From the NCBI GenBank assembly GCA_021650915.1, contig CP091279.1, forward strand, positions 2,040,001 through 2,072,000: a stretch of DNA of 32,000 nucleotides. The letters are read 5' to 3'. The DNA is from Candidatus Brocadia sp. (GTDB lineage: Bacteria; Planctomycetota; Brocadiia; Brocadiales; Brocadiaceae). Under the pieces are notes generated by a model. The model did no database searches. It was not told the origin of the DNA and was given only the letters and a program-made list of their open reading frames with translations. Positions 4,647 to 19,200 of this stretch are shown piece by piece (within the stretch, counting starts at the first letter, position 1; each line of letters begins with the position of its first letter). The translations under genes were made by a program, and so were the position numbers.

Positions 4647-7334
4647 ATGGTATCTTTATCGATCGATGGGAAAAAAGTGGAGGCAGAACCTTCTCAAACG
4701 ATTTTGCAGGCTGCACAAAGACTGGGAATTCATATCCCTACTCTGTGCCACGATCCACGTCTTGCCCCTTCCGGGGCGTGCCGGATGTGTGTGGTAGAAG
4801 TGGAGGGCGCACGATCACTGGTGGCCTCCTGTGCAACCCCCGTCTCAGAGGGTATGAAGGTCTCTACCCAAAGTGAATCAGTAAAACGGGCACGGAAACT
4901 CAATCTGGAACTTATCTGGTCTCATCATCCCAATGACTGTCTGACGTGCGATAAAACAGGGGAATGTCAGCTTCAGAAATTTATGTACGAATACGACGTG
5001 AAGACCTCGCGGTTTGTGGAACAGAATCCTCCCCCAAGGCCTGACGATTCAAATCCCGGGATTTATCGTGACATGAACAAATGCATCCTTTGCGGAAAGT
5101 GCGTCAGGATCTGCGATGAGGTGCAGGATCAGCACATCTGGGCATTTTCAAACCGCGGGATGCAAACCTCAATTGCTACAGCCTTTGAAAAACCCCTAAA
5201 AGACGCCGGTTGTGTATTTTGCGGACACTGCGTTTCTGTATGCCCGGTAGGCGCCCTTATGGACAAACCTGCTGCAAAAAAGGGACGTCCCTGGGAAACC
5301 AGGAAGGTACGCACGGTCTGCTGCTACTGCGGCGTGGGATGCAGCCTTATACTTCATGTAAAAGGGGGCGAAGTCCTGAAGGTAACAGCCGATACCCATG
5401 ACGCCCCAAATTATGGCAGTCTCTGTGTGAAGGGACGGTATGGATTTGAATTTTACAAAAGCCCCGACCGTTTAAAGTTCCCATTGATTCGCGACCGTAT
5501 TGACCAGCCATTTCGGGAGGCGAGCTGGAATGAGGCAATCGGCCTGGTAGCCAGGAAGCTGATGGGGATCAGGCAGAAATATGGTCCCGACGCATTTGGA
5601 TGTCTTAGTTCTTCAAGAGGCACAAACGAAGAAAACTATCTGGCTCAAAAATTCACTCGTGCCGTAATGGGAACCAATAATATGGATAACTGTGCACGGG
5701 TATGCCACGGCCCTTCGGTAACAGGCCTCCGAGCCTCGTTAGGAAGCGGAGCTGCTACCAATTCCCTGGCTGATATTGAAGGTGCGGAGGTGCTCATTGT
5801 CAGCGGTTCCAATACCACTGAGGCCCATCCGGTAGCCGCCTTAAAAATCAAAAAAGCGGTGCGGCAGAATGGGGCGAAACTCATCGTAATCGACCCGCGG
5901 GAGATAGAACTCGTCCAGTACGCAACCGTGTGGTTGCGTTTAAAACCAGGAACCAATGTAGCCCTTATCAATGGCCTGCTGCATGTCATTTTAAAAGAAG
6001 GCCTGGAAAACAGGGAATTTATCCGGCAACGCACCGAAAATATCGACATGCTACAGCAGATTGTGGCACAGTACACACCTGAAAAGACAGAGGAAATTAC
6101 CGGCGTTCCTCAGGAAGATATTGTCAAGGCTGCCAGAATTTACGCCGGTACACGGAAGGGTATGATTGTCTATGGTTTGGGAATGACCGAACATAAGGCC
6201 GGCTCACATGGTGTCATGTCCCTGGCCAATCTGGCTTTGATTACGGGCAACGTAGGCCGGTCAAATACCGGGATCAATCCGCTTCGCGGACAGAATAACG
6301 TCCAGGGTTCATGTGACATGGGGGCATTACCAGACGTCTACACCTGCTATCAAAAGGTTGATGATCCAATTGCCAATAAAAAATTCTCTGAGGCATGGGG
6401 TTGCCAGCTTCCCGCAAAACCGGGGCTAAAGGAGCCACAAATGTACCGGGAAGCCCTGGCAGGAAAACTAAAAGCGATGTATATCATTGGGTATGACCCG
6501 GCTGTAACGCAGGCCAATATCCATCATGTGCGGTCAGCCATGAAAAAACTTGACTTTCTCGTCGTACAGGAGCTTTTTATGACGGAGACGGCAAAACTGG
6601 CCCATGTAGTACTTCCCGCTGGATGCTTCTTCGAGAAGGACGGTACCTTTACCAACGCCGAAAGAAGGGTCAGACGGCTCAATCAGGCCATTCCTTTGCC
6701 TAAGGGAACAAAACACGATTGGGAGATTATCTGCCTGATTGCCAGCGCCATGGGTTACCCCATGCATTATCATCATCCAAGTGAAATCATGGATGAAATA
6801 GCCCGCCTTACGTCGGAATTCACGGGAATTGATTTTAAGCGACTCGAAGGCGATGGGCTGGTGTGGCCTGTCTGGGATAAGAATCATCCCGGCACGCCCA
6901 TTTTACATAAAGACACCTTCACCAGGGGAAAAGGGAGATTGAATGATCTTTTGTACACCCCATCGGAGGAATTGCCCGATGATGACTATCCTTTGTATTT
7001 AACTACGGGTCGCCGTCTTTACCATTATAACAACGGGTCAATGTCGCTACGCAACCCGGAGATTTATTCGATCAGTTCGGAAGAATTTGTGGAAATCCAT
7101 CCCGATGAGGCTGAAAGACTGGATATAAAAACAGGAGATACCGTGAGGATAAAATCAAGACGAGGTTCTTTGGAAGTAAAGGCACGCGTCACCCGGAAAT
7201 CCCGTCCCGGGAGTGTATTCCTGTCCTTCCATTTCCCGGAGGTCCCGACGAACGTTCTAACCGGTCCAGGAGAAGATCTCCTGGCGCTTACCCCGGAATA
7301 TAAGGTGTGTGCGGTAAAGGTGGAGAAGACGTAG
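4647..7334 (+). CDS. fdhA: NAD-dependent formate dehydrogenase alpha subunit (Mo/W-bis-PGD, Cys type, NuoG-like N-terminus)
   Basis: 895-aa ORF with GGAGG 9 nt upstream. Cluster motifs: N-terminal 2Fe-2S (CHDPRLAPSGACRMC), His/Cys 4Fe-4S (HHPNDCLTCDKTGEC), two ferredoxin motifs (CILCGKCVRIC, CVFCGHCVSVCP), and MopB 4Fe-4S (CCYCGVGCS). The active-site block is NCARVCHGPSV, with Cys rather than an in-frame TGA at the metal-ligand position. Confidence 0.95.
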   Translation: MVSLSIDGKKVEAEPSQTILQAAQRLGIHIPTLCHDPRLAPSGACRMCVVEVEGARSLVASCATPVSEGMKVSTQSESVKRARKLNLELIWSHHPNDCLTCDKTGECQLQKFMYEYDVKTSRFVEQNPPPRPDDSNPGIYRDMNKCILCGKCVRICDEVQDQHIWAFSNRGMQTSIATAFEKPLKDAGCVFCGHCVSVCPVGALMDKPAAKKGRPWETRKVRTVCCYCGVGCSLILHVKGGEVLKVTADTHDAPNYGSLCVKGRYGFEFYKSPDRLKFPLIRDRIDQPFREASWNEAIGLVARKLMGIRQKYGPDAFGCLSSSRGTNEENYLAQKFTRAVMGTNNMDNCARVCHGPSVTGLRASLGSGAATNSLADIEGAEVLIVSGSNTTEAHPVAALKIKKAVRQNGAKLIVIDPREIELVQYATVWLRLKPGTNVALINGLLHVILKEGLENREFIRQRTENIDMLQQIVAQYTPEKTEEITGVPQEDIVKAARIYAGTRKGMIVYGLGMTEHKAGSHGVMSLANLALITGNVGRSNTGINPLRGQNNVQGSCDMGALPDVYTCYQKVDDPIANKKFSEAWGCQLPAKPGLKEPQMYREALAGKLKAMYIIGYDPAVTQANIHHVRSAMKKLDFLVVQELFMTETAKLAHVVLPAGCFFEKDGTFTNAERRVRRLNQAIPLPKGTKHDWEIICLIASAMGYPMHYHHPSEIMDEIARLTSEFTGIDFKRLEGDGLVWPVWDKNHPGTPILHKDTFTRGKGRLNDLLYTPSEELPDDDYPLYLTTGRRLYHYNNGSMSLRNPEIYSISSEEFVEIHPDEAERLDIKTGDTVRIKSRRGSLEVKARVTRKSRPGSVFLSFHFPEVPTNVLTGPGEDLLALTPEYKVCAVKVEKT

Positions 7335-7344
7335 CCTGGAAAAC

Positions 7345-7377
7345 GGGGTGAGGCGCGTGAGTAAAATGCCTCACCCC
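7345..7377 (+). terminator. stem-loop downstream of fdhA (possible terminator)
   Basis: Perfect 10-bp stem ggggtgaggc (7345-7354) / gcctcacccc (7368-7377), starting 11 nt after the fdhA stop. No clear T-tract follows, so function is uncertain. Confidence 0.35.
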
Positions 7378-7649
7378 GTATGCACTTTGGCAAGATAAAA
7401 TCCATGGATTTTGAGCTTTTTTAAAAAAAGCGCCTTGTTGGAAAAAAACGGATAATTTCTTGTTGTCTTTTCACTAAAAAAAGGTATCTTGGAAAGTCTT
7501 ATATACATAATTTTATCCCTGTCTGAATACATGGATAATTTTTCCCATGTTTATTCGGTTCTCGAGTGGAGATTTAAGAGTGTGCTTCCTCTTTCCAGAG
7601 GGGAAATTACCCGTTCAAAATTTCTTGTATAAAGAGGCAACAGCGCCGC

Positions 7650-8435
7650 ATGTCAAAACCAAAGGTATTAATCCTCAGAACGGCTGGGACAAATTGTGAT
7701 TACGAAACCCGATACGCCTTTGAAAAGGCGGGGGCAGAGGTGGCCGTTGTCCATATAAATACCCTGCTTGCCAATAAGAACGCGCTTCATGATTATCAGA
7801 TATTAACCCTTCCCGGCGGATTTACCTATGGAGACGACATCTCCGCGGGTAAAATCCTGGCAAATCAGATCAGGTACCATTTGGCGGAGGAAATGAATGC
7901 CTTTATCCGCGCGAAAAAACTCATCCTCGGCATCTGCAATGGATTTCAGACGTTGACAAAGGCCGGATTCCTGCCCGCTCTCATCAGCCATGATCAGGAG
8001 GTCACGCTGACCTTTAACGACTCAAACAAATTCGAAGGCCGATGGGTGTATCTGAAGGTGTGTTCGGATAAATCGGTCTTTCTGAAGAATTCTGATGCTT
8101 CGATTATCTACCTACCCATAGCACACGGGGAAGGCAAGTTCATTGCCAGGGACGAAACCATCCTTAAACGCCTCACGATGAATCGTCAGGTCATCTTTCA
8201 ATATGTCAATGAGCATGGGGAAGAAGCTGGCTATCCATGGAATCCAGCCGGTTCGGTTCAGGGCATAGCAGGCATCTCTGACCAGACCGGTCAGATCCTT
8301 GGCATGATGCCACACCCGGAGAGGCATGTAGAGCCGACTCAGCATCCGCGCTGGACGCGCAGCGGATTAAAGGAATGGGGAGACGGTTTCTTGATTTTTA
8401 AAAATGCCGTCCAGTATGTGAAAACCAATTTTTGA
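7650..8435 (+). CDS. purQ: phosphoribosylformylglycinamidine synthase glutaminase subunit (PurQ-type class I amidotransferase)
   Basis: 261 aa. The N-terminus KVLILRTAGTNCDYET, LPGGFTYGDD, the nucleophile elbow ILGICNGFQ, HGEGKF and the catalytic MMPHPER are all typical of PurQ. Confidence 0.88.
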   Translation: MSKPKVLILRTAGTNCDYETRYAFEKAGAEVAVVHINTLLANKNALHDYQILTLPGGFTYGDDISAGKILANQIRYHLAEEMNAFIRAKKLILGICNGFQTLTKAGFLPALISHDQEVTLTFNDSNKFEGRWVYLKVCSDKSVFLKNSDASIIYLPIAHGEGKFIARDETILKRLTMNRQVIFQYVNEHGEEAGYPWNPAGSVQGIAGISDQTGQILGMMPHPERHVEPTQHPRWTRSGLKEWGDGFLIFKNAVQYVKTNF

Positions 8436-8471
8436 TTGTCAGAGGAATTCCTATTTATTTGGAGACAGAGC

Positions 8472-8969
8472 ATGATGCATAAAACAGTTCCCGTGAGAAA
8501 GGAAAGTAAACCCGTCGTAGATGCAACCAAGTGCAAGGCCATTCTTGCACAATATCCTAACGCGACCTCGGCAGACCTCATTCCCGTCCTGCAGCAGATG
8601 CAGGACGCATACGGATACCTGCCCCAAAATATTTTGGAAGAAATAACGGCCACCACACGGATCCCCCTGAGCAAGATTTATGGGGTTATTACCTTCTACT
8701 CGCAGTTTTCTCTTGAACCCAGAGGGAAACACACGATCAAGGTCTGCACCGGCACTGCCTGTCACATTAAGGGTGCGCCCGATATCAAGAAAAAGATCAC
8801 CGAAGTCCTCCATATCCATGAGGGGGAAACGACAAAGGATTACAAGTTTACGTATGAACCGGTGGCCTGCCTGGGCACCTGTTTTCTGGCGCCGGTGATG
8901 ATGATTAATGAACGATACTATGGAAAGCTGACAACGGAAAAAACTGAACAAATTCTGAAAAGTTATTAA
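8472..8969 (+). CDS. NuoE/HoxE-like 2Fe-2S subunit (formate dehydrogenase gamma / NADH dehydrogenase 24-kDa type)
   Basis: Thioredoxin-like 2Fe-2S motifs are CTGTACHIKG and ACLGTCFLAPVMMIN. The start is taken at the ATG at 8472 (GGAGA 6 nt upstream). The track ORF starts at a TTG at 8436. Confidence 0.85.
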   Translation: MMHKTVPVRKESKPVVDATKCKAILAQYPNATSADLIPVLQQMQDAYGYLPQNILEEITATTRIPLSKIYGVITFYSQFSLEPRGKHTIKVCTGTACHIKGAPDIKKKITEVLHIHEGETTKDYKFTYEPVACLGTCFLAPVMMINERYYGKLTTEKTEQILKSY

Positions 8970-8989
8970 ACCGTAAAGGAGTATTTATC

Positions 8990-10669
8990 GTGAAACAACT
9001 GAAAACCCCTGACGATCTCTCAAAATATAAAAAGTCTCTCGAAGCGAAACACCGGCCTGACACGACACGGATATTCATTTGCTCGACCGGTTGCAGGGCG
9101 CTTGGCGCCGAGGAGGTATGCAAGGCGTTCAAGAATGAAATTGCAAAACAATCTCTTGCCGACAAGATAGAAATTGTAGAAACCGGCTGCCAGGGACTCT
9201 GTACCAGGGCACCCGTATTGACCATCGAACCGTTAGGAATTTTCTATGGCAGGGTTACAGAAACGGATGTGCCTGAAATTATTTCACGCACAATACAAAA
9301 AGGCGAGATCATCGACCGCCTCTGTTACTCTGAGGCAGGAAAACGCATCCCCCACGTTCGGGACATCCCCTTTTACAGCAAACAAAAAAAGATCGTGTTA
9401 AAGAATTGTGGCAGCATCGACCCCCAGAACATCGATGAATATATTTTGAGGGACGGCTATGCCGCCTTCGCAAAGGTGCTGCGTGGTATGACACCGGACA
9501 AGGTCATTGATGAAATAAAAAATTCAGGCCTGCGCGGCAGGGGTGGGGCCGGATATCCCACGGGACTGAAGTGGGAATCGGTGCGAAAGGCTCATGGCGA
9601 CGTAAAATACGTGGTCTGCAATGGAGACGAAGGCGATCCGGGTGCGTTTATGGACAGGGCAGTTCTTGAAGGCGACCCCCACACCGTTATCGAAGGGATG
9701 CTCATAGGCGCATACGCGATTGGCGCGCAAAAAGGATTTGTTTATGTGCGCGCGGAATATCCCATTGCCGTGGAGCACTTAAAAATTGCCATAGAGCAGG
9801 CAAGGACGCTGGGACTCCTTGGAAATAATATTCTTGGGACGCCCTTCTGTTTTGATCTGGAGATCAAGATGGGCGCCGGTGCCTTCGTTTGCGGAGAGGA
9901 AACAGCCCTGATTGCTTCTATTGAAGGAAAACGGGGCATGCCCCGTCCACGCCCACCCTACCCTGCCACCAGCGGCATCTGGGGAAAACCCACGAATATT
10001 AACAATGTTGAGACCTTTGCAAATGTGCCGGTTATCTTCCTCAATGGTTCCGGATGGTATAAGGCCATTGGCACAGAAAGCAGTAAAGGCACAAAAATAT
10101 TCGCCCTGGCAGGCAATGTGAAAAATACCGGCCTTGTCGAAGTCCCCATGGGAACCACGCTCCGTGAGATCGTCTTTGATATCGGCGGGGGCATTCCTGG
10201 CAGGAAACAATTTAAAGCTGCTCAGATGGGCGGCCCTTCCGGGGGATGTGTTCCTGCCCAACACCTTGACCTCCCTATCGACTACGAAACGGTAAAAGAA
10301 GTGGGGGCAATTATGGGATCAGGAGGACTTATTGTCATGGACGACTCCACTTCCATGGTGGAAATTGCCCGTTATTTTATGGAATTTTGCCAGGACGAAT
10401 CCTGCGGAAAGTGTGTGCCCTGCAGGATAGGAACCAGGAGGATGCTTGATATCCTGACGCGAATTACCAAAGGGGAAGGCAAACAGGAAGATATCGGCCT
10501 CTTAAAGGAATTGGCGGAAGTCACGAAAACAGCCTCTTTGTGCGGACTGGGACAAACTGCTGCAAACCCGGTGCTCTCTACTATTCATTATTTCGCGAAT
10601 GAATATGAAGACGCCATTCACAAAAAGGCCGCACAAACATCTCAGCCCAATCCTTCATCACCAGCATAG
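8990..10669 (+). CDS. NuoF/HoxF-like FMN- and NAD-binding subunit (formate dehydrogenase beta) with N-terminal 2Fe-2S domain
   Basis: GTG start with AAGGAG upstream. Motifs: GLRGRGGAGYPTGLKW (FMN), CNGDEGDPGAF (NADH), and ESCGKCVPCRIGT...CGLGQ (4Fe-4S). An extra N-terminal thioredoxin-like domain is present (CSTGCRALG...ETGCQGLCTRAP). There is no C-terminal ferredoxin extension. Confidence 0.9.
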   Translation: MKQLKTPDDLSKYKKSLEAKHRPDTTRIFICSTGCRALGAEEVCKAFKNEIAKQSLADKIEIVETGCQGLCTRAPVLTIEPLGIFYGRVTETDVPEIISRTIQKGEIIDRLCYSEAGKRIPHVRDIPFYSKQKKIVLKNCGSIDPQNIDEYILRDGYAAFAKVLRGMTPDKVIDEIKNSGLRGRGGAGYPTGLKWESVRKAHGDVKYVVCNGDEGDPGAFMDRAVLEGDPHTVIEGMLIGAYAIGAQKGFVYVRAEYPIAVEHLKIAIEQARTLGLLGNNILGTPFCFDLEIKMGAGAFVCGEETALIASIEGKRGMPRPRPPYPATSGIWGKPTNINNVETFANVPVIFLNGSGWYKAIGTESSKGTKIFALAGNVKNTGLVEVPMGTTLREIVFDIGGGIPGRKQFKAAQMGGPSGGCVPAQHLDLPIDYETVKEVGAIMGSGGLIVMDDSTSMVEIARYFMEFCQDESCGKCVPCRIGTRRMLDILTRITKGEGKQEDIGLLKELAEVTKTASLCGLGQTAANPVLSTIHYFANEYEDAIHKKAAQTSQPNPSSPA

Positions 10670-10823
10670 CGCAGCAACGCTGCAATCAATTGACCACCTC
10701 TCATTCCCCTCCTTTTTACAAGTGCAAGGAGGGGACAACGGGGAGGTAAAGGATAAAACCCTTCCTATTTCCCTTTCGCAAAAAGGGGACTTCGTCTTGA
10801 ACTCCCAGCAGAACGCCGCAGGG

Positions 10824-10954
10824 GCAACAAAATCTTGTTAAAAAAGAATTTTACACGGGAAATAATCATGAGCAGCGTAGGGGCGGGTTTCAAACCTGTC
10901 CCTACAAGACAACAGCATTTACACAGAGGGTTTTTCAAAAAACTAACTTGTTGC
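10824..10954. repeat. degenerate copy of the GTAACAATT-type palindromic element with REP-like hairpin
   Basis: The right end tttttcaaaaaactaacttgttgc (10931-10954) resembles the 29241-29264 terminus. The left end gcaacaa (10824-10830) is degenerate. The central hairpin is GTAGGGGCGGGTTT-c-AAACCTGTCCCTAC (10877-10905). Confidence 0.45.
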
Positions 10955-10972
10955 AGGTGTGAAATATTTTGC

Positions 10973-12905
10973 GCTAACCCGACTTTCGCAATTCGAGGGG
11001 TATACAACCCGCTGAGCCAGGAAAATCAAGGGGTCATGTAAAAAGGTCGGCACTACAGGCCGACCTGTCCGGATGCGTAAACCTTGGGCGGCGGTTGTTC
11101 AGGAAGCGCCAATCCCAACTGTGCCAAAAGGAGGGCAACATCCTTCTCCGGCTGGGTATAACGGCTCATGACAATATGACGGCCATCCGTAGTCGGTAAA
11201 TGAACGTCTATCATTTGAATGCACGACAGTTTTTCCAAAATCGCTTCAGACGTCAGCCCTCCGGCCCTCCCCCGCGCAAGATTGCGCAGTGTCGTGTGGA
11301 GACAAAAAGCCAAAAAGGAAACAAAGATATGGGCTTCAATTCTCCGTTCCAATTGATGCCATAGGGGGCGGACGGAAAGAGACCCCTTCAAGTCCTTAAA
11401 TGCCTGTTCAATCCGCGTCAACAGCAAATAATTTTCCCAGACGGTTTCTGGCGCGGCGACCTGCATGTTGGAACGAAGCAAATAACGCCCCTCGCGCCGA
11501 TACGCCTGCCTCAGGCGTTCCCGATCCAAACTGAACCGGAACGTATTCTCATTGACCGGTTCCTGCGGTTTGGGAATGGAGATCGTGACCAGTCTGTAGT
11601 CTCGTCCGGCTTCTTTCTTTAACGCGCCAATATGCATGAGCAGGTCATCGCGCGTGAGGGCTTTTCGATTGCGAAGTTCGCGCAGACCCATCCACAAACG
11701 TCTGAGTCTGCGCCTACGCATGGCACGCTCCTTAGACACCCGGTCATGGCTTTCCACGTAAACGTAAAACTCCGATTCCTGCCGAAGAACTTTCACGCGG
11801 ACGCTCTCCCTCGCCCGCATCCAGGTTTGTTCGAGTAGCGGTTTTTCTACTCTCGTCAAATGCCCCTTCGGAGTCCCAACCAAATAATCAATCCCGCGCT
11901 CACGCATCTTTTCCAACATCTCCTCCGTTGGAATACCGCGATCCATAAGCCAGGTGCGCCGGAATTTCCCATACCGCTTTTCAATCCGATCCAGAAATTC
12001 CTCCGGCGTTGCGGTGTCTCTGGTATTGCCCGGATACACTTCGTAGGCCACGGGAAATCCTTCCGGCGTTAACACCAACGCCACTACCACCTGCACGCAA
12101 TCCGAACGTTTGTCCCGGCTATATCCAAACCGTTTCTTACTCCCCGATCCAGTCGGAGGTGGGTCACTTTCAAAATACGTACTCGTCAAATCATACAGCA
12201 GTACATCGTACTTCGCCCCAAAGAGCTTGCCCCACTTCTCCTTTAAATAGGCAAACAGCTCGTCCCGATGCTCAAGCAACAAATCCAAACAACGATACGC
12301 CTTGTCCTTCTGCGCCAGGGAATAATCCTCTCCCAGCAGATCGCCTATTGCGCTGCGCACGTACCACTCACGGTGAAAACGAAATTCGCTTCCCGGATCG
12401 ATCAACCGGTAACAGACAAGCGCCTTCAGCATATTCAACCAGCTTGCTCCCCACTCCCGTGGATGGCGCAGCTCTATTTTGTCCAACCTCACCCGAACTG
12501 TCTCACCATCCGGTATCGGCATGGCTTCCCGGTCATCCGGAAACAATGCCAGTTGTCTTGGTTTCGGTTCTTTACCCGACACCGCCTCTATCGTCCGAAT
12601 CCACCCAGCCCGTTGATTGTCATTGAGTTCTCCCAAATAGAGAACCTGCCGCTGCACCACCCTTCTTCCGGTAACCCGGCGGTTCTCTACCACACTCCAA
12701 TACCGGTGGGTTTTCCCATCCTTCGTTCGTGTCTTTTCCCGGAGAAACATGCGAGCATTTTCGCACTTCCTCCTGCATGCGTCAAGAGGGTAGGTCGGCA
12801 CTACAAGCCGTTTTTAAAATTCACCCCTTGAATATCACGGGTTTCCTGGCGACTCTTGCCCAAAAATAAACTTTTTTGGGCGCGAATTGCGAAAGTCGGG
12901 CTAAC
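10973..12905 (-). mobile_element. IS4/IS1634-type insertion sequence (about 1.93 kb, apparently intact)
   Basis: Terminal inverted repeats share an 18-bp identical core CCCGACTTTCGCAATTCG (10978-10995, inverted at 12883-12900) with a partly matching extension. Subterminal inverted similarity is also present (gccaggaaa...caaggggt...taaaaa). A single long transposase ORF lies inside. No clear target-site duplication was seen. Confidence 0.85.
11053..12750 (-). CDS. DDE transposase, IS4/IS1634 type
   Basis: 565 aa from the ATG at 12750. The N-terminus MFLREKTRTKDGKTHRYWSVVENRRV...VLYLGELN is the characteristic start of this transposase group. The track ORF begins 17 codons earlier at a GTG. Confidence 0.9.
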   Translation of the reverse strand: MFLREKTRTKDGKTHRYWSVVENRRVTGRRVVQRQVLYLGELNDNQRAGWIRTIEAVSGKEPKPRQLALFPDDREAMPIPDGETVRVRLDKIELRHPREWGASWLNMLKALVCYRLIDPGSEFRFHREWYVRSAIGDLLGEDYSLAQKDKAYRCLDLLLEHRDELFAYLKEKWGKLFGAKYDVLLYDLTSTYFESDPPPTGSGSKKRFGYSRDKRSDCVQVVVALVLTPEGFPVAYEVYPGNTRDTATPEEFLDRIEKRYGKFRRTWLMDRGIPTEEMLEKMRERGIDYLVGTPKGHLTRVEKPLLEQTWMRARESVRVKVLRQESEFYVYVESHDRVSKERAMRRRRLRRLWMGLRELRNRKALTRDDLLMHIGALKKEAGRDYRLVTISIPKPQEPVNENTFRFSLDRERLRQAYRREGRYLLRSNMQVAAPETVWENYLLLTRIEQAFKDLKGSLSVRPLWHQLERRIEAHIFVSFLAFCLHTTLRNLARGRAGGLTSEAILEKLSCIQMIDVHLPTTDGRHIVMSRYTQPEKDVALLLAQLGLALPEQPPPKVYASGQVGL

Positions 12906-13087
12906 ACCGTGCACGGATTTCCGGTTTCCGATGCCTTGAAAAAGACAAAAGGTATTGTGGGAATTGCATGAAAGTAGTATAATTACTTTATTATTGCGAT
13001 AGGAGAGCGACGAGGCTCGTCGCTCCACAGATAAAAGACAACCCAAATATTCGGGATTAACCGTATTGGCTCGTAAAAGTGTCTATT

Positions 13088-13726
13088 ATGAGAATTATAT
13101 CCATTACTGGCACGGCAAGCGGCGTGGGTAAGACAGCAGTTGTGCGGTTTTTACTAAAAAATCTTGAGGATTTTTCGGCCTTAAAAATCACGACAAAGCA
13201 CGAAGGCAACTGCCCCAGGCACTCTGACTGCGATGTGTGTGAGACCATGCAACGTCCATACACGATCACAACGAACCCGCTTCAGATCAACCAATCGGGC
13301 AAAGACACCGCCTTGTTCAAAAGCGCCGGCGCCAGAAAGGTCGTCTGGCTTCAAACCCATTCAAAACACCTGAAAAGGGGTATTGAAGAGGCTTTATCCC
13401 ATTTCAGCAAAAATGATTCAATCCTTATAGAAGGTAATAGCTTCCTGCACGTGCATGATGCCGATATCAGCATCCTTGTCGCCACCCCCAGAGAGACAAA
13501 GATCAAACGTTCGACACGACAAATTGTCTCTAAAATTGATCTGGCAATCATTAATGTCTATGCCGATGACAGTCCCGACGATATTACAAAAACGCGGGAG
13601 AGGTTACACCAAATTGGTTGCTATGCACCGGTACATATTATTAATCCGCTTCAGGATAATTACACTCCAAACAAAGTTTTTCTCACCCACATGAAAGAAA
13701 TGATTGGACAGCCCGTTCAATCATAA
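13088..13726 (+). CDS. MobB-like P-loop NTPase (molybdopterin-guanine dinucleotide biosynthesis adapter-like), tentative
   Basis: Walker A GTASGVGKT directly after the start. SGKDTALFKSAGARKVV resembles the MobB GKDS..R.AGA block, and ILIEGNSF resembles MobB LVEGFK. An extra Cys motif CPRHSDCDVC is atypical for MobB. Confidence 0.5.
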   Translation: MRIISITGTASGVGKTAVVRFLLKNLEDFSALKITTKHEGNCPRHSDCDVCETMQRPYTITTNPLQINQSGKDTALFKSAGARKVVWLQTHSKHLKRGIEEALSHFSKNDSILIEGNSFLHVHDADISILVATPRETKIKRSTRQIVSKIDLAIINVYADDSPDDITKTRERLHQIGCYAPVHIINPLQDNYTPNKVFLTHMKEMIGQPVQS

Positions 13727-13961: not shown

Positions 13962-14993
13962 TTACCGGTTATGGCAAACGGTGCACGCAATTCCCATCGG
14001 TTTGGGGTGTGGCGGTTCGCCAGCCTTGCTAGGCGGATGACATGCCGAGCAGCTCATATTATTAAAGGGTGGGTGCGGAGAATCCATTGCAGAAGGATGT
14101 ATTGGAGTAGGATGACATACCCTGCAATTGACCATCGATATCGGGAAATGACAATTGAGACAATGGCGATTTCTGGTGTTTACACCGCCCCATGAGGCAT
14201 TATGGCTTAACGGCGTAGTGCTCTCATGGCATCGTACACAAAAATCCTCCTGATGGCATACGCTGCATTTCTTCCGTTCCCATGACGCTGCAAACCCATG
14301 GGTCTTTCGGCGCCAGGAATTCGTGTGATTTCTGGGTTTTTGATCCTGATGACAGTCGATACACCAGGAATTATCGTTATGGCATCTCTCGCAGTACTTC
14401 TGATTGTAATAGAACTCATTTCCATGCTTTGCTATCCACCGGGGGTCGTCGTGATTGACCCATCGGTCTTCATGATAGAGTGGCATCCGGTTCTTTTTGA
14501 TGTGTTTGTGACAGACATCGCAGGCAATCTTTTCCTCTCCCCGTTTTTTGTGGCACGGAATGCAAGTGCCATACATATCCGGGATAAGATCAGGAGTGAT
14601 TGCGTCACTTGTTTCAATACCCGCATGGCACTCGTTACACGCTACGTTATTCTCCAAATGGGCCTTGTGGGTAAATTTTAAATCCCGGTATTTTTTAGGA
14701 ATGTCGTGTTTTACCTTTATTTCCGTGCCAGGTTCCGTATGGCACAGCAAACACGATTGAGGATTGCTGGTATCAAAATTTTTCATATGGCAGGTAAGAC
14801 ATGTTGCCATCTTGGGCCATCCCGGTTCAAGATCGGCTTTATAGGCGTGACACATATTACAATCCTTTAAGCCCCGCTCACTATGCCTGCCATGGCTGAA
14901 ATGGATCTCCGACTCTTTGCAACCTCCCAGCATCGTAAGGGCAACGAGAGCAATCGTGGAGATCAGATAACAGAATTTTTTCATCCGAAACAC
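13962..14993 (-). CDS. tetradecaheme cytochrome c lipoprotein
   Basis: 343 aa. Signal peptide with lipobox LTMLGGC. Fourteen CXXCH motifs: CNMCH, CLTCH, CLLCH, CNECH, CIPCH, CDVCH, CERCH, CIDCH, CSVCH, CVRCH, CLNCH, CRVCH, CSACH, CTVCH. GAGG lies 5 nt upstream of the GTG start. Confidence 0.9.
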   Translation of the reverse strand: MFRMKKFCYLISTIALVALTMLGGCKESEIHFSHGRHSERGLKDCNMCHAYKADLEPGWPKMATCLTCHMKNFDTSNPQSCLLCHTEPGTEIKVKHDIPKKYRDLKFTHKAHLENNVACNECHAGIETSDAITPDLIPDMYGTCIPCHKKRGEEKIACDVCHKHIKKNRMPLYHEDRWVNHDDPRWIAKHGNEFYYNQKYCERCHNDNSWCIDCHQDQKPRNHTNSWRRKTHGFAASWERKKCSVCHQEDFCVRCHESTTPLSHNASWGGVNTRNRHCLNCHFPISMVNCRVCHPTPIHPSAMDSPHPPFNNMSCSACHPPSKAGEPPHPKPMGIACTVCHNR

Positions 14994-15047
14994 TGCTACC
15001 TCATATATTCACGCCTGGTAACGTTAAGCGAGTTACCCTGCGCATAA

Positions 15048-16442
15048 TCAAAAATTAACACTGTAAGAAAGCAAGAGTTGGTGAAACGTATCCGGGTCTG
15101 TGTCGCTTATTTCAGACGACCATCGCATTGTTATATCAGACTGTTTCGTTAATAAATATTTAATCCGCAGATAATAGGTGCGAACGTCGATCTTTTGCTC
15201 AATATCCCTTGTATACTCATTATCCATGACCGTCTGCAGATCGTTGCTGCCAACATAATTGTACTTATAGACAGAATAGCTTGTGCCAACACCCACATCA
15301 AGCTTTCCAAATTTTTTATCATAATCAACACCAACATCTACCGTATGGTCAATTCCTTTTACGTTCCAATATTCTATCGTAAAGGATGCCTTCGATTCTT
15401 TGAAAAACAGGTTGTTCACGTCGAAGGAAAGAAACATCCTGTTGTAGTCATGATTAAACGTATCCTCGTCATCCTTGTCTATCACACTCCGGTAATCGAA
15501 ACCGCCGGAGATACCAAACTTTTCACCCAAACCCTTATACCCTGTCACGCTAATAAGTTCAAACGGTTGCAATGTTCCCAGGAGTTCAAAGAAGGGAGAG
15601 ATGTTATTGCTCTCCTCCCCCAAGGAGTGAAGGAACCGGTAATATGATATCTGGATATTTGCGTCCCAGTCAAATTTATCCCAGGATAATTTGACCAGGA
15701 AATCCTTTGACATGGTATTCAGGAGAGTATATCGTCCGTAAAAATTAAAATCATCATGTATTTTTTGCCACAGATTCAGCCCCACCTCGTCATCAATAAA
15801 TTCGTCATCGACAATGCGCACGTAATCCAGGGTTGTGCGTGTATCTACGAAAGGCCGGAAAGCCACTCCGCTTCCTGCCACGGTATCATAATAGGCGCTC
15901 GAATAGTGCGAAACCCTCAGACCGCCGAAGATATAACTTTCAACCGGTCCTATCTGCTGTTCGTATTTTGCCCCATCAAAGAGGATGTTTTCTATAGAAT
16001 ATTGATATTGTCGCCCGATACGGAGACTGGACTTTTCAACAACGGGATCCTTGATATCCGCGTGCAAATAATAAATACGTCCGTTGTATTGATGATCATA
16101 ACTGTCGAGGACATCCCGAAAAGCGCCTGATTCAGGCTCTCTTCCATCAAGATCGGCGGAAATTCTGCCTGAACCCGATAGGGTTATCTTGTCACGAAAA
16201 AATGGTTTTGTCTTAAACCGCAGATAGTCATAGGTGTCGTGGTCATCATCATTGCCGTCTGCCCAACGGCCTTCATATTGGGCCCGAAAATTTCCCGAAA
16301 TAAAATCTTTATAGGTAAAGCCCGACTCACTTACACCCGTTATGATATCGCCCGCGTTGTCAGTCGATGCAAAAAGGATAACAGGAAACAAGAAGTTCCC
16401 CAAGATGAATATTGCTGCGATTGTTGTCAGGGATAAACGCAT
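15048..16442 (-). CDS. outer-membrane beta-barrel (porin-like) protein
   Basis: Signal peptide MRLSLTTIAAIFILGNFLFPVILFAS from the ATG at 16442. The sequence is Asp/Tyr/Gly-rich with alternating-hydrophobicity stretches. The C-terminal LLLSYSVNF ends in Phe, the typical OMP beta-signal. It lies 54 nt upstream of the 14-heme lipoprotein gene. Confidence 0.65.
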   Translation of the reverse strand: MRLSLTTIAAIFILGNFLFPVILFASTDNAGDIITGVSESGFTYKDFISGNFRAQYEGRWADGNDDDHDTYDYLRFKTKPFFRDKITLSGSGRISADLDGREPESGAFRDVLDSYDHQYNGRIYYLHADIKDPVVEKSSLRIGRQYQYSIENILFDGAKYEQQIGPVESYIFGGLRVSHYSSAYYDTVAGSGVAFRPFVDTRTTLDYVRIVDDEFIDDEVGLNLWQKIHDDFNFYGRYTLLNTMSKDFLVKLSWDKFDWDANIQISYYRFLHSLGEESNNISPFFELLGTLQPFELISVTGYKGLGEKFGISGGFDYRSVIDKDDEDTFNHDYNRMFLSFDVNNLFFKESKASFTIEYWNVKGIDHTVDVGVDYDKKFGKLDVGVGTSYSVYKYNYVGSNDLQTVMDNEYTRDIEQKIDVRTYYLRIKYLLTKQSDITMRWSSEISDTDPDTFHQLLLSYSVNF

Positions 16443-16703
16443 TACTGTTTCATTTCGCTTGCATGCGGCATCATTCAGGATTACCTGCAAAAGTTTTCAG
16501 AGAAGACGCAGTTTATAGTTGTTTTGCGGCTGTGCAGATGAAATTGCTCGCGAGATCATCACTACCACTTACTTCATTTCCCGTGGCGTAAGATGTGTGC
16601 TATTACGTTGAATACAAGATATTGATTAGGCCATTGGCGAATCCTCCCCCCGTTTCCTTCAGTAAACCAGGGGAAACAGGGGGGGAAATGCTAAACATCC
16701 GGT

Positions 16704-17357
16704 CTAGTCATGATGCATATCTTCACGATGTATGGTCAGTTTTCCAGCAACCTCCAGCGGGTAATCCTGCCGATTCTGATAGCCACTGTCGAAAGTTGTA
16801 AGCGTAGGCTTTATTTTGAAGCGCACTTTAACGGAATCCTCCATGATGATTGCTTTACAATTCGAGATATATGCGTTAGCAAATTTTAATATTTTACCAC
16901 TATTTGTAATACCTCCACCATCGGATATAGAAAAACATTCATCCAAACCCAGCCCATCCTGCACGGTTTTTCCATGCTTGTTCAAAATCCTTTCCATGAC
17001 GACCGCCATACCATCTTCGCATAGATCCAACGGGAATTTTTCACTTGTTATGCTGTATTCATTTCTCCGGTATCCACTTATTGTTGCAGTTCCAACGTCC
17101 AGGAGGTTGCCACATTCCGATTGCTCCGATACCAACTCAAATTGAAACATCGCCTCATCAAAATTACCGTTGGTTTCGTCATGTCCCCATTGAGTAATGT
17201 CCACCACACCTTTCACCTCTTCCGTTATCTCCTCGTTTAACCCGGATATCGTGATCGTACCATCAAAATGAACCATCTGATGGGCAAATATTTGACATTT
17301 GGAACCAAAAGCAATCACAATCAAAAAAACAAGAACACCCGTAAGGCCTTTCTTCAC
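16704..17357 (-). CDS. secreted protein of unknown function
   Basis: 217 aa. GTG start with AAAGGAG 6 nt upstream. N-terminal signal peptide MKKGLTGVLVFLIVIAFGS..FAHQ. No motif recognised. Confidence 0.6.
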   Translation of the reverse strand: MKKGLTGVLVFLIVIAFGSKCQIFAHQMVHFDGTITISGLNEEITEEVKGVVDITQWGHDETNGNFDEAMFQFELVSEQSECGNLLDVGTATISGYRRNEYSITSEKFPLDLCEDGMAVVMERILNKHGKTVQDGLGLDECFSISDGGGITNSGKILKFANAYISNCKAIIMEDSVKVRFKIKPTLTTFDSGYQNRQDYPLEVAGKLTIHREDMHHD

Positions 17358-17564
17358 GTAATTCTCCTTTTGATAATTACAATATATTTAAATTTAAATG
17401 AAGTATGCTGATTGTTACCCTTACTGTTCGACGCCAAAATCAAGTCCGTAAGGTCGAATTGACGAATTCTTCAAAGTTATACCACGAGGTACTGGACGGT
17501 ATTTTTCCGCCCAGTACCCCTTACAAAGAAAAAACCTTTTTACAATTCTCTAAAAGGCGCCATC

Positions 17565-18122
17565 TCATCCCCCCTCATCAAACAGGTTGTAGTCTTCAAT
17601 TTCACCAAAGGAAGTGGAAAAGTCGCCATTTACAGGCGATGGGAATCCATATGAAACCCAAGCCCTTGCCCAGAAAGGCCCTTCCCGGGTATGTTCCGGT
17701 ACGACAAAACTTTCCTTAAATTTACGTACCCGGTTGCCACGAACCTTGTCTTTGAAAGAGTCGACAACCATTTCTCCGGCATCATCCCAATCACCATCGT
17801 GATTCCAGTCAATATATAACCTGAAATATACGCCGTGGGGATAAAATATTTTTTTATCTGTTGTGGTAAGATGCCAGACAACATTGACCTTTCTCCCCAC
17901 ATCCCAATCACCAGGTTTTTTCCTGAACAAGACGCCATCATTTGCAGTGGAATCCTCTCCCAGATATTCATATTGCTGGTTGAAGGTGGCAGCGCTTGGG
18001 TATGGTGAAGGCGCAGAGCCGAAATCCGGCATAGTTTCCCCTTTTACCGCTGACGCAAGAAGCGATGAGAGAAAAAGCAAAGCTCCAACAGACGTAAAAA
18101 ACACTCTTTTCTTTCTAGCCAT
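17565..18122 (-). CDS. secreted GEVED-domain protein
   Basis: 185 aa with AAGGAG upstream and signal peptide MARKKRVFFTSVGALLFLSSLLASA. YIDWNHDGDWDDAGE and the C-terminal FGEIEDY match the GEVED-domain signature (IDWN.DGDF.D.GE ... GEVEDY). Confidence 0.65.
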   Translation of the reverse strand: MARKKRVFFTSVGALLFLSSLLASAVKGETMPDFGSAPSPYPSAATFNQQYEYLGEDSTANDGVLFRKKPGDWDVGRKVNVVWHLTTTDKKIFYPHGVYFRLYIDWNHDGDWDDAGEMVVDSFKDKVRGNRVRKFKESFVVPEHTREGPFWARAWVSYGFPSPVNGDFSTSFGEIEDYNLFDEGG

Positions 18123-18144
18123 AAATATTCTCCTTTTTCAGATG

Positions 18145-19200
18145 TTATTCGCTGGGAAGACAATTAACATATAGGTTGTTCGTTACCGCATCATTCACCA
18201 TAGAAACCACCCAAGCAGCCAATGATGTAGGTTTGTAGAGCAGGTAATTTGCCCTGATGTATTTACCTGCGTCAAGCAAATCTTTCGTCCCTAGTTTTGT
18301 GCAATCAGACGTATCCCACTCCTGCCCATGGGCATTAGTCCAACTAGCAATGCGAACCTCAACCCATATAACGGTACGCCCTTCACTCACCGCGGTGTTA
18401 ATTTTATCCCTGATCTCCTGAACTGCACCCACTCTCTTGTCGCACCAATCTTCACGAATCGTACCGTACTGCACATCGTAGAAACCGCCCATACCTTTCA
18501 CGTCGTTTGCAAACCTTGCCATCACATTATCCCGGTAGTTTTGATCAATCGCATCATCTCCGTCTCCGTGTCCTACCAGAAGAACGATTTCGTTTGACGG
18601 ATCTGTGCTGAATTCCTGCGCCCTCTCTAAAAGCACATTGGAAATATCCGGATGATAATCAATCGCATTGGTAGCAATATACTGAATATCGCTAAAGCTA
18701 CGGAATCGCCTGTGTATAGCGCCCATGTGATTGCAGAAATCATTCTGCTCATTGTATTCACCCGGACATTCAACCGTTTCATCAAGATAGTTAGCCTTGC
18801 TTGGTTCACCCTCAACCTCACAACCGATACTCCACTTGAGCACGTCGACTGTGCTGGAATCTGTATTCAGATACAACGGGACGACAACAATCTTATCCAC
18901 ACCTTCAGCCTCCAGACGACGAATGGCTTCATCTTCCGTTTGCCACATTTTATAAGTCATCATATCCATCACCATATGCAAACCACTGTCTACCTGATAG
19001 TCAGGCAGGCGATTTTTCACCTCATCAACAAGACTGAAAAAATTAGGATTTTGACTGAAATACCCATGACCAATTATTAAGACGCCAATCTTTGAATCAC
19101 TCTCGGCCATTGTCCTATGAGATGAAAAGGCGCCGATACTAAAAATTGCGAGCAAGAAGAAAACCCACGACAAGCATTTCTTTTTTTTCATTAATCTCAT
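18145..19200 (-). CDS. secreted class II chelatase-fold (CbiX/CbiK/SirB-like) protein, tentative
   Basis: 351 aa with AAAGGAG upstream and signal peptide MRLMKKKKCLSWVFFLLAIFSIGAFS. Two repeated half-domains start GVLIIGHG and IVLLVGHG, with VDKIVVVPLYL after the first, as in two-lobed CbiX/CbiK chelatases. Confidence 0.45.
   Translation of the reverse strand: MRLMKKKKCLSWVFFLLAIFSIGAFSSHRTMAESDSKIGVLIIGHGYFSQNPNFFSLVDEVKNRLPDYQVDSGLHMVMDMMTYKMWQTEDEAIRRLEAEGVDKIVVVPLYLNTDSSTVDVLKWSIGCEVEGEPSKANYLDETVECPGEYNEQNDFCNHMGAIHRRFRSFSDIQYIATNAIDYHPDISNVLLERAQEFSTDPSNEIVLLVGHGDGDDAIDQNYRDNVMARFANDVKGMGGFYDVQYGTIREDWCDKRVGAVQEIRDKINTAVSEGRTVIWVEVRIASWTNAHGQEWDTSDCTKLGTKDLLDAGKYIRANYLLYKPTSLAAWVVSMVNDAVTNNLYVNCLPSE

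Follow-up and report, generated by a model that had tools for sequence, protein, structure and literature searches.

The stretch analysed here (the window) comprises 32,000 nucleotides of a Candidatus Brocadia sp. genome (GCA_021650915.1, contig CP091279.1, positions 2,040,001 to 2,072,000) and matches, at 99.7% identity, a contig of 3.25 Mb from Brocadia genome GCA_021463075.1. Between window positions 13962 and 19200 it carries five co-directional genes on the minus strand which, in the order in which they are read, encode a chelatase-like protein of 351 amino acids (aa), a GEVED-domain protein of 185 aa, a protein of 217 aa, a predicted outer-membrane beta-barrel and a multiheme cytochrome. 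The open reading frames (ORFs) are separated by 22, 207, 213 and 54 nucleotides (nt), the third gap widening to 261 nt with the start that we prefer for the barrel gene; the arrangement and spacing described in an earlier note on this DNA are therefore those given by the ORF coordinates. That note also took all five products to be exported, and signal-like N-termini are indeed visible in each, export having been judged by eye from these hydrophobic segments. Our main conclusion concerns the last two genes: their products would form a two-component porin-cytochrome (Pcc) type complex of the outer membrane, a reading to which we give a probability of roughly 70% from sequence features and by analogy with known conduits.

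The barrel ORF (15048-16490, minus strand) encodes 480 aa from a TTG at 16490, but we prefer the ATG at 16442 (15048-16442), since its 464-aa product matches the full-length orthologs. This ATG sits 28 nt past the end of a Reeler-gene remnant discussed below, a spacing that is identical in Brocadia sp. WS118; the public gene call (447 aa, P0001) begins within the signal peptide. The protein starts with the signal peptide MRLSLTTIAAIFILGNFLFPVILFA and ends in ...SVNF, and its AlphaFold2 model, built on a 51-sequence alignment, is a barrel of 22 beta-strands (mean predicted local distance difference test score, pLDDT, 80.8), in agreement with the earlier description of a 464-aa barrel ending in Phe. 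Neither Pfam nor NCBIfam returned a match for it at E <= 1, and the family to which it belongs, which counts 978 clusters at 50% identity in a library of 1.84 billion proteins, is likewise without a curated model. A repeat homolog search with a 26-sequence barrel profile added only one protein.

The cytochrome gene (13962-14993, minus strand) encodes 343 aa from a GTG, or 340 aa if translation begins at the ATG at 14984. Counting its motifs confirms the lipobox and the 14 CXXCH motifs noted earlier: one heme motif falls every 23-24 residues, 31 histidines are present in all, and the lipobox reads L22-G-G-C25 (14919-14930, minus strand) with Lys at +2. The heme motifs and several of the extra histidines are invariant across 50 homologs. 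The lipobox is kept as L[GS]GC, VGC, PGC or AGC in orthologs and in relatives at 34-40% identity, which marks the cytochrome as a predicted conserved lipoprotein rather than simply a "periplasmic" protein, the term used for it in the Kuenenia literature. Pfam Cytochrome_C7 matches three stretches of the protein above cut-off (1.3e-14), and the best match of the family profile in the PDB is the dodecaheme GSU1996 (3ov0; 4e-29, two stretches), followed by ActA of alternative complex III (1e-19 to 1e-23; 6f0k, 6lod, 8k9e, 6btm). ActA is a pentaheme subunit, and the part of the family that resembles it is N-terminal (residues about 26-200); the likeness suggests shared ancestry of heme modules. 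Tandem c7-type triheme domains are thus common to the cytochrome and to GSU1996, its closest solved relative, which is of similar length (318 aa) but has 12 hemes and lacks the lipobox, and which matches the less clearly c7-type C-terminal half of the window protein less well. GSU1996 is a soluble periplasmic protein without a known barrel partner.

The association of the two genes extends far beyond this genome. Barrel homologs came from protein databases and, through a genome scan with a 13-sequence alignment, from 34 loci in genomes; synteny was assessed by tblastn of all five window proteins against 44 loci. Wherever the DNA continues, the gene directly downstream of the barrel gene encodes the cytochrome, with the tblastn matches -4 to 270 nt apart. 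This adjacency is seen in Brocadia, Jettenia, Kuenenia, Wunengus and other Brocadiaceae, where barrel orthologs are 62-85% identical, and it recurs where identity falls to 24-35%, in Anammoxibacter, other Planctomycetota, SAR324 and Thermodesulfobacteriota. The only departures are a locus at a contig end (L034) and two with truncated barrels (L033, L036). The pair is thereby kept together across more than 35 loci in several phyla, bearing out the earlier view that the barrel and the adjacent multiheme lipoprotein resemble a porin-cytochrome conduit.

Two further distant homologs emerged from a search that began with the cytochrome. In each, an unannotated gene of beta-barrel size precedes the cytochrome gene and a larger multiheme gene comes after it. 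Against the barrel profile, the preceding gene scores 1e-134 in an Abyssubacteria genome but only about 4e-9 (21.6 bits, a weak match) in a second, long contig. The distant loci follow the order 5-heme multiheme cytochrome, barrel, 12-14-heme multiheme cytochrome and a 760-1056-aa lipoprotein multiheme cytochrome with 10-19 hemes and MtrC/MtrF-domain matches, which is the classical three-part Pcc layout. The large outer lipoprotein cytochrome is present in L003, L037, L038, L041, L042, L044 and L049, and relatives with the full set (in L003 at 6892-13370), at 24-35% identity, belong to Planctomycetota, SAR324, Thermodesulfobacteriota and Abyssubacteria. No gene for a separate outer-membrane lipoprotein cytochrome was found in the window or in the Brocadiaceae loci examined: in this family the big outer cytochrome has been lost, or was never present.

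A conduit of just this reduced form is on record for anammox bacteria. Candidatus Kuenenia stuttgartiensis (kuste4024/kuste4025) is listed among the organisms with pcc clusters, its cluster being limited to two genes, one for a porin-like protein and the other for a cytochrome with 14 hemes and 338-344 aa (Shi et al., 2014; PMC4245776). The same account gives Pcc barrels 18-22 predicted strands and a size below that of MtrB, reports a separate outer-membrane lipoprotein cytochrome gene "in most cases" but none in Kuenenia and Anaeromyxobacter, and suggests that in the Kuenenia pair the absence of the outer cytochrome may be made up for by the extra hemes. In a Kuenenia sp. locus (L030) the barrel is 65% and the cytochrome 72% identical to the window proteins, and the cytochrome has 338 aa and 14 CXXCH motifs; a cytochrome homolog in the protein databases (P0078) is also labelled Ca. 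Kuenenia sp. Judged by this ortholog, with which it shares the two-gene form and the 14 hemes, the window pair is the Brocadia copy of the described anammox two-gene pcc cluster. The earlier note had found no described system to match the gene combination and had counted the small barrel and the additional hemes as anomalies. Both points have to be given up: the two-gene form was already published for Kuenenia, and the supposed anomalies are stated hallmarks of the anammox version (PMC4245776). A Brocadia ortholog of the pair is reported as expressed during electrode respiration in the supplement of Shaw et al. (2020; PMC7188810), although Brocadia locus tags and fold-changes for the porin-cytochrome genes were not found in the portion of its text available to us.

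Set beside the general features of pcc clusters, the window has a barrel with a signal peptide and terminal Phe whose 22 modelled strands lie within the 18-22 range, and a cytochrome whose 14 CXXCH motifs lie within the range of 5-14, its gene 54 nt downstream; a separate outer-membrane lipoprotein cytochrome gene is not among its genes. Clusters were admitted to the published set by BLAST at E < 0.01 to OmbB/OmaB of Geobacter sulfurreducens (Shi et al., 2014; Liu et al., 2014), and the relatedness of the Kuenenia pair to these proteins in sequence is very low (PMC4245776); the window pair would belong to that set through the Kuenenia pair, which the set includes. The Geobacter systems (OmbB-OmaB-OmcB, ExtABCD and related ones) share with the window a barrel gene adjoining multiheme cytochrome genes, and with the distant relatives of the window pair also the large outer lipoprotein cytochrome; they employ two or more cytochromes, of which OmaB has 8 hemes, whereas the window has a single 14-heme cytochrome with a lipobox. 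MtrAB, PioAB and MtoAB embody the same concept of a two-gene conduit made of a barrel and a cytochrome of about 340 aa, but with a 26-strand MtrB and a 10-heme MtrA in place of the 22-strand model, 14 hemes and lipobox found here. The window proteins fall outside those families: neither the window barrel nor 26 members of its family match MtrB_PioB or TIGR03509 at E <= 1, and the cytochrome, with 14 rather than 10 CXXCH motifs, scores 17.5 bits against a cut-off of 192.2 with the DmsE/MtrA model (TIGR03508), its family profile matching MtrA (6r2q_A) at only 7.5e-5 over part of the protein. The difference from MtrAB that had been noted earlier, a smaller barrel and more hemes, holds on these tests.

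In the arrangement that we propose, the 22-strand barrel would be inserted in the outer membrane, and the cytochrome, after export and insertion of as many as 14 bis-His hemes, would receive a lipid anchor at Cys25 and be directed to the outer membrane, a destination suggested by the Lys at +2. Its c7-type modules would form an elongated heme chain in or through the barrel lumen, along which electrons could pass between carriers in the periplasm and partners outside the cell, whether acceptors or donors (for example Fe(III)/Mn(IV) minerals, humics, electrodes and Fe(II)). By the standard barrel-geometry formula, 22 strands at a shear of about 24 would give a C-alpha radius near 20 Å, about 15% smaller than that of the 26-strand MtrB. 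This is the size class of the TonB-dependent receptors, which house a plug of 150 residues, and it makes room for a segment of heme wire plausible in our view. The 10 hemes of MtrA span about 8 nm, and the 12 of GSU1996 about 12 nm. From these spans, 14 hemes could cross the membrane unaided, as has also been argued in PMC4245776, and we propose that the anammox pair would have no need of a separate outer cytochrome because the hemes of its single cytochrome may suffice for the membrane span.

The same complex might instead work mainly inward, drawing electrons into the periplasm from Fe(II) or other reduced solids outside the cell, in the manner of PioAB and MtoAB. Such a direction is favoured by reports that anammox bacteria oxidise Fe(II) with nitrate, as it is by the fact that the Brocadiaceae version is without the large outer cytochrome of its distant relatives. 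Among mtr-type systems, those that oxidise Fe(II) typically have two-gene clusters and no outer cytochrome (PMC4245776). Sequence sets no direction, however, and a heme wire can conduct either way; MtoAB and PioAB are not homologs of the pair, and the sole report of expression concerns electrode (anode) respiration (PMC7188810). We consider a mainly inward role unlikely, though it fares best among the competing explanations.

The genes upstream of the pair bear on what else may belong to the conduit. In Brocadiaceae the usual context is a divergent metallo-beta-lactamase-fold gene followed by Reeler, barrel and cytochrome genes, and secreted Reeler-domain (PF02014) proteins of about 200 aa are encoded just upstream of the barrel in most members of the family (L004:7375-7986; L010:7319-7972; L032:3592-4194 and 5206-5820; about 15 further loci). 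A C-X4-CH motif is invariant in these proteins, apart from one ortholog (L029) that has CXXCH instead, and the Reeler protein probably adds to the module a third component of the monoheme c-type. A literature search for the Reeler domain together with anammox found no papers, and this neighbour is not mentioned in the parts of the PMC4245776 and PMC7188810 accounts available to us.

In the window, all that is left of such a gene is a remnant of 41 codons of its 3' end (16474-16596, minus strand), which tblastn aligns with the C-terminus of the WS118 Reeler protein at 56% identity (E = 3e-8) and which is also evident from DNA collinearity: the DNA of L010 is collinear with the window from the barrel up to 16596, at 82.5% identity. 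From the other side, collinearity with the upstream DNA of related loci stops at 16705, and the intervening 108 nt (16597-16704) gave no blastn match to L032, L012 or L010. Within these 108 nt, just past the stop codon of the 217-aa gene, lies a GC-rich stem-loop (16642-16686, minus strand; -29.9 kcal/mol, z = -1.9), which is not a canonical terminator since it lacks a T-run. Promoter and terminator consensus scans gave background levels, and neither a repeat scan nor a search for further copies of the hairpin motif yielded anything meaningful. With a Reeler remnant and a stem-loop in the gap between the 217-aa gene and the barrel, the five genes are not one homogeneous unit. The collinearity breaks, the unmatched junction and the remnant indicate that the block of five arose when the three upstream genes, a cassette found in one subclade, were joined to the conserved pair by deletion of the Reeler-domain genes that normally lie between them.

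The cassette consists of the chelatase-like gene (18145-19200), the GEVED-domain gene (17565-18122) and the 217-aa gene (16704-17357), all on the minus strand. A chelatase fold for the first product, proposed earlier, is weakly supported: the scores of the relevant families lie below their cut-offs (NCBIfam CfbA, E = 1e-5, 25.5 bits against 120; Pfam CbiX, E = 0.0045, 17.7 bits against 22), and a PDB sequence search gave no match, while two GHG motifs (IIGHGY and LVGHGDG) of the kind typical of class-II chelatases (CbiX/CfbA/SirB) are present. The assignment of the second product was correct, Pfam GEVED (PF20009) matching residues 99-180 well above its gathering cut-off (47.1 bits against 24.4, E = 4.2e-12). 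The 217-aa protein has no assigned function and no match in Pfam, NCBIfam or the PDB. The possibility that it is a diverged Reeler protein, considered since the WS118 neighbour is equally long, was rejected when BLASTP found no similarity.

Outside the window species, the three cassette proteins have co-occurring orthologs in just two species among the 44 loci, B. sapporoensis and B. pituitae (58-69% identity overall, 58-60% for the GEVED protein and 68-69% for the 217-aa protein), and a metagenome scan for the cassette found 3 loci only, two of them identical to the window. The order in B. pituitae is DDE transposase, chelatase-like, GEVED, 217-aa, Reeler A, a minus-strand ORF, Reeler B, barrel and cytochrome; that in B. 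sapporoensis is the same, except that Reeler B is already a remnant. The transposase gene of B. pituitae, of the DDE_3 type (L032:81-1043), lies directly upstream of the chelatase-like gene and hints at arrival or movement of the cassette with mobile DNA. As a cassette of their own, the chelatase-like, GEVED and 217-aa genes are limited to one Brocadia subclade and lie outside the conserved module. Conserved synteny across the Brocadiales and other phyla accordingly belongs to the barrel-cytochrome pair, the five-gene block being confined to three Brocadia species, and the inclusion of the three secreted proteins in the conduit cluster by the earlier note is not upheld.

These observations invite a more speculative picture, which we regard as doubtful as a whole. 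The anammox module could be a distinct minimal conduit, in which one lipid-anchored cytochrome with 13-14 hemes would both plug and wire a 22-strand barrel and would work with the secreted Reeler C-X4-CH monoheme protein in most Brocadiaceae, while the cassette proteins, with a Reeler paralog of their own, would serve as surface metal or heme factors in one Brocadia subclade. Less probable still, and indeed improbable, is that all five genes of the window constitute one system, with the cassette proteins as accessory parts of an extended conduit engaged, for example, in surface metal or heme handling. Their shared direction and short gaps are what such a system would lead one to expect; the cassette stands upstream of the pair in all three of the species that carry it, and in B. 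pituitae and B. sapporoensis it has a Reeler gene of its own 18-30 nt further on, a paralog of the one normally found before the barrel. But those species are close relatives, so the linkage amounts to a single event. The cassette is also absent from about 30 other loci with the pair, including other Brocadia, Jettenia and Kuenenia, and the rarity of the cassette in the metagenome scan, the composition of the gap before the barrel (pseudogene remnant, unmatched junction DNA and stem-loop) and the transposase gene flanking the cassette in B. pituitae all argue in the same direction.

Several observations weigh against the Pcc-type complex that we favour. Its conduit function in anammox bacteria would rest on synteny and analogy, and we know of no precedent in MtrA or OmaB for a lipid anchor on an inserted cytochrome. 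The AlphaFold2 model of the cytochrome is of moderate quality (pLDDT 66 overall, poor in the C-terminal half), and for this reason we draw no statement on the shape of the protein from it; Foldseek with this model gave no structural match to MtrA and only a weak match to ActA of alternative complex III. With the barrel model, Foldseek found only generic barrels at template modelling (TM) scores of 0.37-0.51 and identities of 8-12%, the best being OccK/OpdK, MOMP, AlgE and usher pores, and MtrB was not among the top 50 matches. In the literature the Kuenenia pair is itself called "distantly related" to other Pcc groups (PMC4245776). Finally, the module appears to be dispensable: in Brocadia sp. 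DTUAMX2 (L033:5998-6648) the barrel is cut after about residue 201 and runs into a NuoF-like/formate-dehydrogenase-like cluster, the cytochrome gene and a neighbouring MobB-like gene are both missing, and the module appears to have been destroyed by deletion.

Orthologs of the barrel carry the UniRef label "alginate export domain-containing", which finds no Alginate_exp match in Pfam at E <= 1, and an identity as AlgE is no better favoured by Foldseek than that of other barrels (TM 0.40-0.45, 9-11% identity). A role for the barrel as an ordinary porin for substrates, or as an exporter of polysaccharide, beside a functionally unrelated cytochrome, as this label, the kinds of barrel recovered by Foldseek and weak Porin_4 or OMP_b-brl matches in a few of the 26 family members tested might suggest, is very improbable in view of the lack of any Pfam match, the low structural scores and identities, the 22 strands as against 18 in AlgE and OccK, and a strict adjacency across phyla, down to 24% identity and with extra multiheme genes, that would not be expected of an unrelated neighbour.

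The wider surroundings of the Pcc-type pair are variable. A formate-dehydrogenase-like/NuoEF-like cluster occupies 4647-10669 on the plus strand (an 895-aa molybdopterin subunit with 2Fe-2S and Complex1_51K subunits), and a MobB-like gene (13079-13726, plus strand) adjoins the pair. Between the MobB-like and NuoF-like genes sits an IS1634-family element (10982-12899; transposase ORF 11053-12801, NCBIfam 3.6e-81), which is missing from the 99.7%-identical contigs L007 and L046; its flanks overlap by about 10 bp there, consistent with a target-site duplication. The formate-dehydrogenase-like and MobB-like surroundings are common only to close Brocadia relatives, and in other Brocadiaceae the pair lies elsewhere, beside LpxK, HNH and beta-lactamase-fold genes. 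Within Brocadia this locus is unstable, with loss of the Reeler gene in the window and of barrel and cytochrome in DTUAMX2, and with the IS1634 element nearby in the window only.

The analysis corrects an over-reading of the neighbourhood, the apparent five-gene cluster being a product of deletion in this genome. The conserved unit is the pair rather than the five-gene block, its cytochrome a predicted conserved lipoprotein, with a probable Reeler partner bearing a heme motif in most Brocadiaceae. What may be modestly new here is the predicted lipoprotein nature of the cytochrome, the Reeler protein as a probable third gene, a large barrel family without a curated model and the instability of the locus. 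The broken module in a sister genome suggests that the conduit may be dispensable in nitrite-fed reactors. The kind of conduit was already known, although still as a prediction, and the window pair would join it as a further member. Respiration of electrodes, graphene oxide and Fe(III) has been reported for anammox bacteria, and for the outer-membrane step of such respiration the pair described here is the only obvious candidate.

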